Below are positions 18,384-47,880 of a stretch of DNA of 64,000 nucleotides, one piece after another. This DNA is from Escherichia phage APCEc01. Both the position numbers and the translations under genes were made by a program. The notes below the pieces were generated by a model, which did no database searches, had not been told where the DNA came from, and saw nothing but the letters and a program-made list of their open reading frames with translations. The stretch is from the sequence record NC_029091.1; one strand, 5' to 3'. Every line of letters starts with the position of its first letter. Position 1 is the stretch's first letter.

Positions 18384-18876
18384 GTTTTTGACTAGCGAAA
18401 TGAAAGTGAAGATTGCTGACACCGCTCGGTATTCCCTGAGCCAAAATCCAGACCAAAACAAAGAAGATGTAGTTCGACGTTGTAAGGTTGCAGTCTTTGC
18501 AGAGTATGTAGTAGCAAATTGGCTAGACGGATATGTTAATAAAGGTATTGAAGATGTAGAAGACCCGTACACGTATGCATGGGACGTGTTAGCCCATCCC
18601 AAATATTGTGGAATTCGTGTAGAAGTCAAGACACATCAGATGGATTCTAAATGGATTTCTGTTACCACAGGATACAGTGGTGATTATCCGGGTGGTAATG
18701 GAATCAATATAGGGCCCTTCTTGAATCATCGAGTCGCAGATTGTATTATTATATTAGATGTCAAAGAAACCTCACCTGACGTCTTCTCTTATTCTATAAA
18801 GTTCGTGGGAGACCATGAAGACCTAAAGAAAATCGTCCGCAAGAGCAACTACAACGGGTGGTATCTTCATCTTTAA
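18319..18876 (+). CDS. PD-(D/E)xK-like nuclease, candidate endonuclease IV (denB)
   Basis: 185 aa from ATG 18319 with SD AGAGGT (alternative ATG 18400 gives 158 aa); WDVL...GIRVEVK resembles a PD-(D/E)xK core; position after rIIB as T4 denB. Confidence 0.4.
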   Translation: MVKTNLGLLRLKSLPTFILSNEFLTSEMKVKIADTARYSLSQNPDQNKEDVVRRCKVAVFAEYVVANWLDGYVNKGIEDVEDPYTYAWDVLAHPKYCGIRVEVKTHQMDSKWISVTTGYSGDYPGGNGINIGPFLNHRVADCIIILDVKETSPDVFSYSIKFVGDHEDLKKIVRKSNYNGWYLHL

Positions 18877-18888
18877 TTTCATAAAAGT

Positions 18889-18918
18889 GTTTACAACTAA
18901 GTAGGACTATGATATAGT
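18889..18918 (+). promoter_or_regulatory. T4-type early promoter with inverted repeat over the -10
   Basis: GTTTAC ... TATAGT; inverted repeat TAGGACTA / TAGTCCTA flanks the -10. Confidence 0.6.
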
Positions 18919-18944
18919 AGTCCTATCTAAAAGAGGATAACATC

Positions 18945-19291: not shown

Positions 19292-19398
19292 AAATTGCAC
19301 TTCTTATTGTACTAAGAACAATTTGTGATACGGGTTTTTACATTGCATGTTCGTTCACTGGAACATGGTTGGCTTTAACATATTTTAATGTAATTTAA
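19288..19398 (+). CDS. small hydrophobic peptide
   Basis: 36 aa MKIALLIVLRTICDTGFYIACSFTGTWLALTYFNVI; ATGA coupling. Confidence 0.3.
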   Translation: MKIALLIVLRTICDTGFYIACSFTGTWLALTYFNVI

Positions 19399-19400
19399 TT

Positions 19401-19430
19401 GTTTACAACAAGGTAGGATTATGGTATAGT
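19401..19430 (+). promoter_or_regulatory. T4-type early promoter with inverted repeat over the -10
   Basis: GTTTAC ... TATAGT; inverted repeat GTAGGATTA / TAGTCCTAC. Confidence 0.6.
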
Positions 19431-19458
19431 AGTCCTACTGAAACATGAGGAACACAAA

Positions 19459-19659
19459 ATGGCTAAGCTTTTTAAAGATGTTGAAATTGATGAAAAATTT
19501 GTTCTGAATAATGGTCAGCAGCTTATTCGTGTAGCTTCTATCGCCGGACAAACTCATAACTGTATCGCCCCAACGTGTTGGACTCGATTCTTTATTGAAG
19601 ATGACACTGAATGTTTAACTGTTGAAGAGCTTTTTGAACGTTCTGATATGGCCGAATAA
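19459..19659 (+). CDS. hypothetical protein
   Basis: 66 aa; RBS GAGGAA. Confidence 0.5.
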   Translation: MAKLFKDVEIDEKFVLNNGQQLIRVASIAGQTHNCIAPTCWTRFFIEDDTECLTVEELFERSDMAE

Positions 19660-19661
19660 AA

Positions 19662-19691
19662 TTGTACAAACTCTTGAGAGCAGAGTATAAT
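19662..19691 (+). promoter_or_regulatory. T4-type early promoter with inverted repeat over the -10 (ndd)
   Basis: TTGTAC ... TATAAT; inverted repeat GAGAGCA / TGCTCTC; near-identical cassette recurs at 47823. Confidence 0.6.
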
Positions 19692-19735
19692 GCTCTCATG
19701 GATTACAAAAACATTAATCAATTGAGGAAATTAGC

Positions 19736-20525: not shown

Positions 20526-21851
20526 ATGCAATTGAATTCTCGTAATCTAAAAAGTATTATTGATAACGAAGCCTTAGCATATGCGATGTACACCGTTGAA
20601 AACCGTGCAATCCCAAACATGATTGATGGATTTAAGCCGGTTCAACGTTTTGTGGTTCATCGTGCGTTAGATTTGGCTCGTGGTAATAAAGAAAAATTTC
20701 ATAAACTTGCGTCAATTGCAGGCGGTGTTGCAGATTTAGGTTATCACCATGGTGAATCTTCTGCACAAGATGCAGGTGCATTAATGGCTAACACATGGAA
20801 CAACAACTATCCACTGTTAGATGGCCAAGGCAACTTTGGTTCTAGAACAGTCCAAAAAGCTGCAGCATCTCGTTATATTTTTGCTCGTGTAAGTAAAAAT
20901 TTCTATAACGTATATAAAGATACTGAATATGCTCCAGCTCATGAAGATAAAGAACACATTCCACCAAAATTTTATCTTCCTATTATTCCGACAGTTCTTT
21001 TAAATGGCGTCTCTGGTATTGCAACCGGTTACGCAACAAATATTCTGCCTCATAGTTTTAAATCAGTCAAAAAGGCTGTATTACAAGCTCTTCAAGGTAA
21101 AAATGTCACTAAGCCAAAAGTTGAATTCCCGGAATTCCGTGGTGAAGTACATGAAGTTGATGGGCGTTATGAGATTCACGGAACATATAAGTTCACATCT
21201 CGCACTCAAATGCAGATAACTGAAATCCCATATAAATTCGACCGTGAAACGTATGTGAGTAAGGTTCTTGACCCGTTGGAAGACAAAGGTCTAATCTCAT
21301 GGGAAGATGATTGTGGTGAACACGGCTTTGGGTTTAAGGTGAAGTTCCGTAAAGAGTACTCGCTTCCTGATGATGAAGAGCTACGTCATGAAAAAATCAT
21401 GAAAGATTTTAGTCTCATCGAACGTCGTTCACAAAACATCACAGTGATTAATGAAAAGGGTAAATTAGCGGTCTACGATAACGTAGTGGACTTAATCAAA
21501 GATTTTGTTGAAGTCCGTAAGACTTACGTTCAGAAACGTATTGACAACAAAATCCTTGAATCTGAAAAAGCATTTAAACTTGCTTTTGCTAAGGCACACT
21601 TCATCAAAAAAGTTATCAACGGTGAAATTGTGATTCAGGGCAAGACTCGTAAAGCTTTGTCTGAAGAGCTAGCACAAATCGAAATGTATAAAGAACATGT
21701 CGATAAACTGGTAGGTCTTAACATCTTCCATATCACTTCCGACGAAGCACGTAAACTAGCAGAAGAAGCTAAAGCTAAGAAAGAAGAAAATGAGTATTGG
21801 AAGTCTACTGATGTTGTGACAGAGTACACTAAAGACTTGGAGGCACTTTGA
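20526..21851 (+). CDS. 52: DNA topoisomerase II medium subunit
   Basis: 441 aa; size and position match T4 gp52 (442 aa). Confidence 0.85.
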   Translation: MQLNSRNLKSIIDNEALAYAMYTVENRAIPNMIDGFKPVQRFVVHRALDLARGNKEKFHKLASIAGGVADLGYHHGESSAQDAGALMANTWNNNYPLLDGQGNFGSRTVQKAAASRYIFARVSKNFYNVYKDTEYAPAHEDKEHIPPKFYLPIIPTVLLNGVSGIATGYATNILPHSFKSVKKAVLQALQGKNVTKPKVEFPEFRGEVHEVDGRYEIHGTYKFTSRTQMQITEIPYKFDRETYVSKVLDPLEDKGLISWEDDCGEHGFGFKVKFRKEYSLPDDEELRHEKIMKDFSLIERRSQNITVINEKGKLAVYDNVVDLIKDFVEVRKTYVQKRIDNKILESEKAFKLAFAKAHFIKKVINGEIVIQGKTRKALSEELAQIEMYKEHVDKLVGLNIFHITSDEARKLAEEAKAKKEENEYWKSTDVVTEYTKDLEAL

Positions 21852-21927
21852 GTGCCCTAGCCTTAGGATTTCTCGGTGCAATAGCTGCACTAGTGATTTG
21901 GCTGTATTGGTTGGACAAACATGATTA

Positions 21928-21947
21928 GGGAGCTTCGGCTCCCTTTT
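21928..21947 (+). terminator. rho-independent terminator after gene 52
   Basis: GGGAGCTTCGGCTCCC plus TTTT. Confidence 0.7.
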
Positions 21948-21971
21948 GTGCATTTTTTTTCTCACAAAACA

Positions 21972-22000
21972 GTTTACTTTTGCTTCAAACATGATAGTAT
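21972..22000 (+). promoter_or_regulatory. T4-type early promoter (cassette copy 1)
   Basis: AGTTTACTTTTGCTTCAAACATGATAGTATAAACCTATCAAAACAAA; nearly identical to the copy at 22293. Confidence 0.55.
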
Positions 22001-22039
22001 AAACCTATCAAAACAAAACAACCAAATTGGAGAAATAAA

Positions 22040-22255
22040 ATGTCTAAAATGAAATTAACTCAAAACACAACTACTCGTTTCGGTAAAGTTAAACCTGGTA
22101 TGAATGCTCCCCGTAAAGCACTTGTTGAAGAATTAAATTTCTTAGAAGTTGAAATCAATTCTTTAGTGGTTCGCGGTTCAAATGGACATCATTTAGAAAA
22201 GCTTCGTTCTAAAAAGGCAAAACTTATTGGCCTTATTAAAGAAATGAGTTTGTAA
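22040..22255 (+). CDS. hypothetical basic small protein
   Basis: 71 aa; begins MSK like MotA and shares its upstream cassette. Confidence 0.5.
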   Translation: MSKMKLTQNTTTRFGKVKPGMNAPRKALVEELNFLEVEINSLVVRGSNGHHLEKLRSKKAKLIGLIKEMSL

Positions 22256-22292
22256 ATTTTACCAGGGCTTTTGAAAAAGAGCCCAAAATAAA

Positions 22293-22321
22293 GTTTACTT
22301 TTGCTTCAAACATGTTATTAT
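22293..22321 (+). promoter_or_regulatory. T4-type early promoter (cassette copy 2, motA)
   Basis: AGTTTACTTTTGCTTCAAACATGTTATTATAGACCTATCAAAACAAA. Confidence 0.55.
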
Positions 22322-22358
22322 AGACCTATCAAAACAAATACTAATTTGGAGAAATAAA

Positions 22359-22991
22359 ATGTCTAAAGTTACTTACATCATCAAAGCTTCTGAAAACGCT
22401 CTGAATGAAAAAACTGCTGCAATAATGGTTTATATCATTAAGAACAACTTCACCACTGCTGCCAATGTCCGTGAAGCTCTGGAAGCAGAATACAATGCAT
22501 CGGTTGTTAACTCTAACATTGGCGTATTGATTAAGAAAGGTTTAGTCGAAAAATCTGGTGATGGACTTATAGCAACAGGCGAAGCAATGGATATTATCCA
22601 AAAAGCTGCAGACCTCTTTGCCCAAGAAAATGCTCCAGAACTTCTTCAGAAACGTAACACTAGAAAAGCACGTGGAGTTACTCCTGAAATGCATGAATTA
22701 GCAAACTTTGTTTTTGAAAATATTAAAGATAAAGTTGAAGTTAAAGAAATTGGCGAAAACCGTAGTAACTTGGAAGTTCGATTTGCAAAACGAGTTCTAG
22801 GTATTCGTCAGATCGAAATTCGTCGAAATGGTTCTCTTAGAATCTTTGCATACAACATGTCAGAAACTGAATCAAAGCTGTTTACTTCTCTTGAAAATGA
22901 TGTTAAGATTAAGATCGGTGGTAAATATACTTACATTGACTTCCCTAATGTGTCCAAAGAAATCATTACCCTTGTAACTAACGTACTGTGA
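22359..22991 (+). CDS. motA: middle-transcription activator MotA
   Basis: 210 aa; MSKVTYIIKAS and VVNSNIGVLIKKGLVEKSGDGLI match T4 MotA. Confidence 0.9.
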   Translation: MSKVTYIIKASENALNEKTAAIMVYIIKNNFTTAANVREALEAEYNASVVNSNIGVLIKKGLVEKSGDGLIATGEAMDIIQKAADLFAQENAPELLQKRNTRKARGVTPEMHELANFVFENIKDKVEVKEIGENRSNLEVRFAKRVLGIRQIEIRRNGSLRIFAYNMSETESKLFTSLENDVKIKIGGKYTYIDFPNVSKEIITLVTNVL

Positions 22992-23001
22992 GGAATACAT
23001 A

Positions 23002-23331
23002 ATGAATAAGCTGAATATTATTAACGAACTTCGTAAATGTGCAGAACCTACTCAGGAAGGATGGGATATTTGGTACCACGGGGCTTATTTAGGGACAATT
23101 GTAAAGATTAAAGCAGGCCAATATACGGTTATTCGTGAAAATAATGACGCGCCATTTGGCCTTCGTAAAAACTACATGGCAGCGATCAGTTCATTTGTTG
23201 ATGCAGCTTACGAAATCTATAAAGAAGATTATAAAGAATACCAGCAGTCACAACCGGTTATTCGTTCGATTGGTGTAAATAAACAAGCACAAAAATCTAT
23301 TTGGCAACGTATTAAAGGATGGTTTAAATGA
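23002..23331 (+). CDS. hypothetical protein
   Basis: 109 aa; RBS GAGGAA. Confidence 0.5.
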
Positions 23332-47608: not shown

Positions 47609-47823
47609 CTAAAGAACAGCATGAATACATTAAAGGGCTTATCTATGAATCTGAAATGGCGGCTATGATTTATGGACGCCAGATTCAACGATTAGAATCT
47701 TTGCCTCCGACTAATGACCGCTTGTTAGTTCAGTCTCGTGCTAATCTGAAAAATGAATATCAGAATAAGTGGGCAGTAGCGACTAAAGCTCTTCATGAGT
47801 ATATTGAATCTTTAGTAAAATAG
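47599..47823 (+). CDS. hypothetical protein
   Basis: 74 aa; RBS AGAGGAAA. Confidence 0.45.
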   Translation: MPMTKEQHEYIKGLIYESEMAAMIYGRQIQRLESLPPTNDRLLVQSRANLKNEYQNKWAVATKALHEYIESLVK

Positions 47824-47852
47824 TTTACAAACTCTCGGGAGCAGAGTATAAT
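47823..47852 (+). promoter_or_regulatory. T4-type early promoter with inverted repeat over the -10
   Basis: GTTTAC ... TATAAT; inverted repeat GGGAGCA / TGCTCC; close copy of the ndd promoter cassette. Confidence 0.6.
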
Positions 47853-47880
47853 GCTCCTATGGATAATTGAGGAAATCTAA

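Follow-up and report, generated by a model that had tools for sequence, protein, structure and literature searches.

Tandem early promoter/stem-loop modules probably bracket a small accessory early gene upstream of motA in Escherichia phage APCEc01

In the genome of Escherichia phage APCEc01 (NC_029091.1), the gene motA and a small open reading frame (ORF) of 71 codons that precedes it, here termed ORF71, each stand behind a copy of one and the same expression signal. We analysed this repeat in a stretch of 64,000 nt from the phage (the window, to which all positions refer), in which the slot in question reads, on the plus strand: gp52, a possible motA.1-like ORF, a first stem-loop (SL1), repeat copy A, ORF71, a second stem-loop (SL2), repeat copy B and motA. 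The evidence strongly favours the reading that the repeats are tandem modules of the promoter-early stem-loop (PeSL) type, which bracket ORF71 as a small accessory early gene between gp52/motA.1 and motA. Comparison with related phages further indicates that such modules serve as sites of cargo loss, gain and exchange, both within and between genera.

Copy A (21966..22048) and copy B (22287..22367) align with 73 identical positions in 83 columns, and from the -35 hexamer through the third codon 69 of 77 positions agree, with one 2-nt indel. The entire -35 hexamer, the spacer, the Shine-Dalgarno sequence, the ATG and two more codons are common to both copies, and the similarity ends abruptly on either side (10/40 identical positions directly upstream, 12/40 directly downstream). 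The alignment bears out what a sequence-only reading of the window had described, a near-identical leader including the residues MSK in front of both the ORF at 22040 and motA, and gives this similarity sharp borders. Exactly two sites in the window carry the 22-mer GTTTACTTTTGCTTCAAACATG, also when up to three mismatches are allowed, and none appeared in 100 dinucleotide-preserving shuffles. Across the eight early-promoter-like sites of the window, the 45-nt core (from the -35 hexamer to about +10) is identical at 42/45 positions between copies A and B and at 23–34/45 in all other pairs; the 14-nt spacer is the same in A and B and unrelated at the remaining sites. The near-perfect identity noted in that first reading is thus real in this genome, but a perfect match of -35 hexamer and spacer is limited to the window and a minority of its relatives: a copy A with the spacer motif TTTT was found in at most 25 phage records, and most other ORF-carrying relatives combine ATGT or ACGT in copy A with TTTT in copy B. 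The near-perfect identity is therefore a derived state, produced by local homogenisation.

Both copies have the layout of an early promoter followed by a short leader. Copy A, recognised in the sequence by its early-promoter and PeSL layout, consists of a -35 element GTTTAC (21972–21977), a 17-nt spacer, a TG (21992–21993), a -10 element TAGTAT (21995–22000), a predicted transcription start at about 22007, a GGAG (22029–22032) and the codons ATG TCT AAA (22040–22048). Copy B, which was also found as a promoter-like site with TG in our scan, has GTTTAC at 22293–22298, TG at 22313–22314, TATTAT at 22316–22321, a predicted start at about 22328, GGAG at 22348–22351 and ATG TCT AAA at 22359–22367. 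The consensus of early promoters of T4 type is unusually long (PMC2988021, PMC1524935) and comprises GTTTAC at -36 to -31, an A-rich tract resembling an upstream promoter (UP) element at about -40 to -44, a TGn motif and a -10 element with A at -11 and T at -7, to which RB69 adds C residues at -3 to -1 (PMC1524935, PMC2988021). All of these elements are present in both copies, including the A-rich tract directly 5' of GTTTAC that is also a feature of PeSL elements (TTTTTTTTCTCACAAAACA in copy A, CCCAAAATAAA in copy B) and a CC just before the predicted start. When compared with the promoter consensus of the T4/PST class of PeSL elements, TTTACW-N17-TAYWAT (PMC4122927), copy B (TTTACT-N17-TATTAT) is an exact match at the level of sequence and copy A (TTTACT-N17-TAGTAT) shows one deviation, a G at the Y position, with TG at -15/-14 in both. 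Judged from these motifs, copies A and B are putative early promoters of the T4/RB69 type, with activity and start sites as predicted. The two leaders are about 32 nt long and A-rich, and folding predicts practically no structure for them (-2.2 and -2.6 kcal/mol, z ~0). RegB endoribonuclease acts on unpaired GGAG motifs that lie in the translation initiation region of early mRNAs and have A-rich sequence on their 3' side. Both leaders read GGAGAAATAAA, which agrees with 9 of the 11 positions of the consensus for strong RegB sites, GGAGRAYARAA (PMC3014915), and this shared GGAG within an A-rich leader may subject both mRNAs to inactivation by RegB.

Upstream of each promoter lies a stem-loop, so placed that the order of elements from stop codon to start codon is that of a PeSL: the copy A module runs from a TAG (21926–21928) over the GGAG at 22029 to the ATG at 22040, and the copy B module from a TAA (22253–22255) over the GGAG at 22348 to the ATG at 22359. 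SL1 (21927..21960), the terminator-like part of the copy A module, comprises the hairpin AGGGAGC-UUCG-GCUCCCU (21927–21944) and a T-rich tract, folds with -12.9 kcal/mol (z = -2.7) and is annotated, by prediction, as a terminator in relatives. SL2 (22265..22284), the stem-loop part of the copy B module, has the form GGGCUUUU-GAAA-AAGAGCCC and folds with -12.3 kcal/mol (z = -3.7), a stability reached by none of 200 shuffles. Across genera SL2 carries one compensatory pair (G-C in Mosigvirus, A-T in JS98, G.T in VR5) and one further change from U.G to C-G, which is compatible with a hairpin selected on the plus strand, and it is kept beside different cargo ORFs. The possibility that leaders or hairpins contain a structured RNA of a known family was rejected: Rfam returned only a sub-threshold match of 18 nt on SL1, and the leaders are unstructured. 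As a separate observation, the 4-nt loop of SL1 (21934–21937) is TTCG in the window and most relatives and appears as the reverse complement, CGAA, in RB69, LF82-3, phage 55 and JS09 (loci L005, L018, L019 and L020 were compared); this inversion segregates independently of the presence of ORF71.

In order to place the repeat in its population, we turned to relatives. A 2.5-kb segment from gp52 to motA gave 152 matches among phage records that cover at least 80% of its length at 95–99% identity, the best being vB_EcoM_SCS57 with unchanged coordinates, and the window is the gp52–motA region of a Mosigvirus, a T4-like coliphage of the RB69/JS09/HX01 type. Since an IMG/VR search with MotA yielded two related loci, too few for a population analysis, GenBank phage records were sampled instead: 18 Mosigvirus loci of about 153 records, six of them filled (with ORF71) and 12 empty. 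ORF71 is found at 95% or higher amino acid (aa) identity in 74 records and MotA of the Mosigvirus type, at the same threshold, in 152, so that about half of the genus carries ORF71. In the empty relatives an 801-nt query is matched in two pieces that together span 479–484 nt: these genomes lack exactly one repeat period of about 320 nt and have a single promoter fused to motA. Among the sampled loci copy B is constant, with a TTTT spacer and the leader AAATACTAATTTGGAG (leader B), and the leader of copy A is AAAACAACC(A/G)AATTGGAG (leader A); the copy A spacer reads ATGT or ACGT in four of the six filled loci, and TTTT in the window and JN02 only. The empty sites are chimeric. In 11 of the 12 a promoter of copy A type and leader A stand before motA, the junction lying in a 22-nt block (TTGGAGAAATAAAATGTCTAAA), and in RB69 a spacer of copy A type is joined to leader B, which places the junction within the central identical block. 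The empty phage mar005P1 has the TTTT/TAGTATAAACC haplotype of the window's copy A as well as the same left flank, and thus looks like a deletion derivative of a genome similar to the window. At least three different junction types can be told apart among the Mosigvirus empties. None of the informative single-nucleotide polymorphisms (SNPs) in the flanking gp52 and motA shows linkage to whether the slot is filled or empty; the sites are shuffled, which is a sign of recombination around the slot. A single insertion event marked by a flanking SNP was ruled out, as no such linked SNP exists. We also observed a mosaic, HY126 (locus L003, 1640–1790), in which the end of gp52, the small ORF and SL1 are of JS98 type and join a promoter, leader A and motA of Mosigvirus type within the T-rich tract after SL1, which places a recombination junction exactly at the PeSL.

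The arrangement is not confined to Mosigvirus. The Dhakaviruses JS98 and VR5 carry, in the same slot, an orthologous ORF (72–75% aa identity), an orthologous SL2 and two promoter copies, with leaders that differ between the two phages. A search with the JS98 locus and inspection of representatives revealed five states of the Dhakavirus slot: empty (MX01), filled with the ORF71 orthologue (ORF253 type), filled with an unrelated 75-aa ORF behind which the same SL2, promoter B and leader B are found (IME281), filled with an unrelated 73-aa ORF (AnYang) and filled with two tandem cassettes and three promoters (IME08). All are bounded by the same hairpin/promoter modules, and the empty junctions again vary, with leader A in MX01, leader B in locus L028 and a third leader in locus L040. 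Three further loci (L031, L032 and L035) have gp52, motA.1 and MotA of T4 type and yet contain cargo of the IME281 type, identical at 74 of 75 aa and followed by a hairpin and promoter of Dhakavirus type, which shows that one cargo or more has been passed from genus to genus here. Indels or replacements between close relatives, together with a chimeric module at the empty site, are accordingly seen in Mosigvirus, in Dhakavirus and on the Tequatrovirus backbone. Within L031, a Tequatrovirus-type contig from IMG/VR, we noted that the motA promoter has lost its UP and -35 elements, the terminator hairpin being fused to AAAGCATACTGTGGTACTAT; this site lies about 340 nt upstream of the promoter that now precedes motA, and the 75-aa cargo may therefore be without a full promoter of its own there. 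In Klebsiella phage Marfa (locus L023, 1964–2207) the slot holds two different small ORFs, of 49 and 30 aa, which have an early-type promoter of their own, and the motA promoter of this phage shows the TTTT spacer of copy B and a leader resembling leader B.

T4 itself has no cargo ORF in the slot, and its motA promoter follows a terminator hairpin and TTCACAAAACGGTTTAC. This corresponds to the context of copy A, where a terminator hairpin is followed by TCACAAAAC(A/G)GTTTAC as in T4 and all empty relatives. Copy A thus occupies the ancestral context of the motA promoter, from which it follows that ORF71 uses the original site, while motA uses the copy that travels with SL2. The cassette is also old. 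Between the window and JS98, ORF71 (75% aa identity) has a synonymous divergence (dS) of 1.29 and a ratio of nonsynonymous to synonymous divergence (dN/dS) of 0.18, and its neighbours show 69% and dS 0.93 (motA), 79% and dS 0.99 (arn.4) and 81% and dS 2.1 (gp52); having diverged in step with these genes, the cassette is about as old as the split of the genera. With dN/dS at 0.18–0.22, indicative of purifying selection, sequence divergence identifies ORF71 as a real and old gene and not as a recent arrival. The leaders tell a different story from the genes: leaders A and B of the window are identical at 27/32 positions and the paralogous leaders of JS98 at 15/33, orthologous leaders between the genera agree at 17/34 and 18/30 positions, and lineage-specific spacer changes are present in both copies together (TTCT in JS98, TTAT in VR5). 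This pattern is one of concerted evolution of the two copies within a genome through recombination between them.

Taken as PeSL modules, the repeats can be assigned the following course of events. Each module would comprise a hairpin, an A-rich tract, a strong sigma-70 early promoter of T4 type, a leader of about 32 nt with GGAG and a start codon. ORF71 and motA would each be transcribed immediately after infection from their own promoter and translated from near-identical unstructured leaders, and SL1 would insulate the slot by terminating or attenuating read-through from gp52. Recombination between the two modules would delete the cargo and leave one chimeric module before motA; recombination with the modules of a co-infecting phage, or with an excised circle, would insert or swap cargo; and gene conversion between copies A and B would keep them alike. 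Excision may pass through mini-circles, by analogy with RB49/phi1, for which mini-circles formed by recombination between neighbouring modules have been shown by inverse PCR (PMC2839356). The tract of homology in Mosigvirus spans the leader and continues as far as the third codon, and this accounts for the MSK at the start of ORF71. MotA starts with MSK in T4, JS98 and Mosigvirus, and the Dhakavirus orthologue of ORF71 starts with MNK: as MSK is the common start of MotA, the best reading of the MSK in ORF71 is that such a conversion or crossover tract ended there.

Several points weigh against the interpretation as tandem PeSL modules. The mechanism is deduced throughout from sequence comparison and from what has been published on other phages of T4 type, and the 18 loci compared within Mosigvirus are a sample. 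The junctions do not reveal the direction of an event, whether insertion or deletion, gain or loss. Neither hairpin is a textbook terminator: SL1 was not called by a simple plus-strand terminator scan, because the T-run in the UUUUGUGCAUUUUUUUU that follows it is interrupted, and SL2 has no U-run, is followed by AAAAUAAA and is not a canonical terminator. The record UoN_LDJ77_1, a further instance of cargo exchange in which an ORF71 homologue stands behind a T4-type motA promoter, has 111 kb and is possibly a chimeric assembly. Finally, the junctions of leader A to motA lie at or near the ATG in both genera and have a homology of only about 6 nt (AAAATG) in Dhakavirus, which fits simple homologous recombination less well than the junctions in long blocks do.

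These short junctions are also the starting point of an account that goes beyond PeSL recombination, in which the slot would be a dedicated cross-genus exchange site whose junctions cluster on or beside the start codon, as ATG-to-ATG swaps. Such a pattern would point to a specialised mechanism in place of generic homologous recombination or, alternatively, to a functional tie between the cargo proteins and the MotA-dependent takeover. The examples that suggest ATG-to-ATG joining are leader A–motA in MX01, with its homology of about 6 nt, and the MSK apparently grafted onto ORF71. If it were true, the incoming gene would inherit the promoter, leader and first codons of the resident motA; a specialised mechanism might favour certain sites or depend on replication or transcription at the 3' ends of PeSL elements. 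Cassette exchange is most simply explained by homology, and we regard this extended account as unlikely.

The sequence-only reading had proposed that a new gene was placed under a copy of the motA signals by cassette-mediated insertion or duplication, and one part of this proposal stands: ORF71 does lie between two copies of an expression module, the cargo of the slot varies, and not every phage of the group has the ORF, exactly one repeat unit being absent from about half of the nearest relatives. A recent, one-off insertion of a foreign ORF with copied motA signals would agree with the absence of ORF71 from about half of the Mosigvirus records and from T4, RB69 and Marfa, as well as with the fact that cassettes do move between genera at the motA slot. 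What it does not explain is the presence of the same ORF, SL2 and two promoters at the same position in Dhakavirus, at 75% aa identity and with a dS of about 1.3 like that of the flanking genes: the synonymous and aa divergence of ORF71 matches that of motA, arn.4 and gp52. The filled genomes are moreover diverse, with no flanking SNP linked to their state, and it is copy A, not copy B, that is found in the ancestral promoter context. A recent arrival is thus not supported, and we consider it improbable.

Selection alone, by which the same need for a strong promoter and leader (for translation efficiency or RegB cleavage) would have made the copies converge or stay conserved without recombination, could draw on the unusually long consensus of T4-type early promoters (PMC2988021, PMC1524935) and on the shared GGAG, A-richness and RegB-site positions of the leaders (PMC3014915). 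It is nevertheless very unlikely, as it leaves unexplained why the spacer is identical in A and B when the remaining early promoters of the window show no conservation of it, why substitutions specific to JS98 or VR5 occur in both copies together, why leaders are about 50–60% identical between orthologues but 84% between paralogues, and why the identity reaches codons 2–3 of an unrelated protein. A partial tandem duplication of the motA 5' region, with ORF71 as a diverged or de novo remnant of the duplicated motA, would account for the common MSK and upstream signals, but is highly improbable: nucleotide similarity is at background after codon 3 (12/40), the Dhakavirus orthologue starts with MNK behind a different leader, and unrelated cargo ORFs fill the same slot. 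ORF71 as a diverged N-terminus of MotA was likewise rejected, BLASTP finding no similarity between the two proteins past the first three residues (E ~1 or worse). An assembly or sequencing artefact, although misassembly can produce short tandem duplications, can practically be dismissed given the same arrangement in 74 independently deposited genomes and in another genus.

Having weighed these alternatives, we return to the tandem PeSL modules and to how the locus compares with described systems. PeSL cassettes have been reported for RB49/phi1, T4/PST and KVP40/nt-1 (Arbiol et al. 2010, PMC2839356; Comeau et al. 2014, PMC4122927). In the literature library searched, these two were the only papers on PeSL elements; term searches gave no mention of motA or RB69 in PMC2839356, and PMC4122927 was not searched for either term. 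The locus shares with the described elements the order of stop codon, stem-loop, AT-rich tract, sigma-70 early promoter, Shine-Dalgarno sequence and ATG, and with the T4/PST class a stem-loop that immediately precedes the promoter (PMC4122927). As in those systems, small ORFs without a known function lie between tandem modules, the cassette gives way to one chimeric module in a close relative, crossovers fall between the -10 element and the ATG or in the promoter, and cargo is replaced at the same site. It differs in that the module also serves motA, an essential regulator gene on the border of a conserved block, that the homology in Mosigvirus extends through the leader into the first three codons and that about 150 genomes display a polymorphism of roughly 50:50 along with concerted evolution of the copies. 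Lambdoid morons (Hendrix et al. 2000, via PMC2839356) likewise are accessory genes with their own promoter and terminator-like hairpin between conserved genes; here, in contrast, the cargo has the same orientation as the genes beside it, and the substrate of recombination is the repeated modules themselves. As in integrons, a fixed slot gathers and exchanges small single-gene cassettes, also in tandem arrays (two in IME08), but there is no integrase and no attC/attI, and the cassette brings or shares its own promoter. Classical work on T4 rII reportedly described deletions between short direct repeats. The locus resembles such deletions in the loss of one repeat period with the intervening DNA and in junctions within identical blocks of about 15–36 nt, and is set apart from them by repeats that are functional expression modules, recur across genera and are involved in gain and swap as well. 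The locus is thus a clear but ordinary example of the known PeSL mechanism, and the slot is an exchange hot-spot before motA.

The promoter allele of the repeat is largely a property of this slot: a pattern scan of IMG/VR found it in the motA slot only, and BLAST matches beyond the slot were limited to the Tequatroviruses ime09 and SH-2. In ime09 (locus L004, 1492–1570) an unrelated ORF of 60 aa, situated in the gene 61 region with a goF-like gene and sp on either side, is preceded by an allele close to that of copy B; over 55 nt, spacer included, the two alleles differ by two mismatches. The SH-2 match (H137) is similar to that of ime09, which is the only use of the allele outside the motA slot whose context was read. 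Elsewhere in the window a second pair of sites, 18872–18925 and 19384–19437, is 83% identical, each with GTTTACAAC...TATAGT and a palindrome TAGGACTA...TAGTCCTA that spans the -10 element; flanking an 87-aa and a 47-aa ORF, this pair resembles another PeSL tandem, in this case from the class with the stem-loop over the -10 element. Two distant promoter-like sites, 19658–19703 and 47819–47864, are 85% identical and have a stem GAGAGCA...TGCTCTC around a perfect TATAAT.

The slot is bordered on the left by the conserved gp52 (20526..21851), the medium subunit of topoisomerase II, which is taken from the ORF list and labelled gp52 or DNA topoisomerase II in all matching records, and on the right by the conserved motA (22359..22991), the activator of middle transcription, identified by Pfam MotA_activ (1e-39) and MotCF (5e-9), phrog_1345 and the annotations of relatives. 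A possible hydrophobic ORF of 26 aa with a TTG start (21848..21928), read from the sequence and of uncertain coding status, overlaps the gp52 stop, and its TAG (21926–21928) overlaps the start of SL1. Its position is that of T4 motA.1 (49 aa), RB69 has no annotation there, and phages of JS98 type and the mosaic HY126 have a different, ATG-started version of 34 aa; the ORF may be a degenerating motA.1. The arn.4 homologue that follows motA (23002–23331) occurs in two Mosigvirus haplotypes of 330 and 345 nt, distinguished by a 15-nt indel within a densely substituted block (about 23080–23170 in the window) and unlinked to the ORF71 state. ORF71 itself (22040..22255, from the ORF list) belongs to phrog_6200, a family of unknown function (E = 4e-40). 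Its orthologues in phages of Dhakavirus type are 72–77% identical in aa, and a search of 5.8 billion proteins gave eight clusters, all of Mosigvirus or Dhakavirus type. The AlphaFold2 model (mean pLDDT, the per-residue confidence, 76) is a helical hairpin with helices at residues 23–44 and 50–70, preceded by a basic N-terminus with the conserved sequence RFGKVKPGMN that is modelled at low confidence. Searches for its function returned a sub-threshold match only in Pfam, no match in PADLOC, coiled-coil noise only (E > 0.1) from a sequence profile against the PDB, and generic helical hairpins and its own orthologue only from Foldseek against the PDB and BFVD.

For the biology of T4-type phages, the locus offers a well-populated natural example of the gain, loss and swap of small early genes, with hundreds of sequenced genomes from at least three genera in which the slot is empty, filled, filled with other cargo or occupied by a tandem. 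As the shared module is also predicted to drive motA, the essential activator of middle transcription, each exchange would give a key regulator an altered promoter and leader. The locus is furthermore a tractable system for PeSL recombination, in which junction spectra, circle formation and gene conversion can be addressed, and ORF71, the 75-aa ORF of IME281 type and the 73-aa ORF of AnYang type are small immediate-early candidates for roles in host takeover or anti-defence. The published PeSL model is thereby extended, and current understanding is left unchanged.

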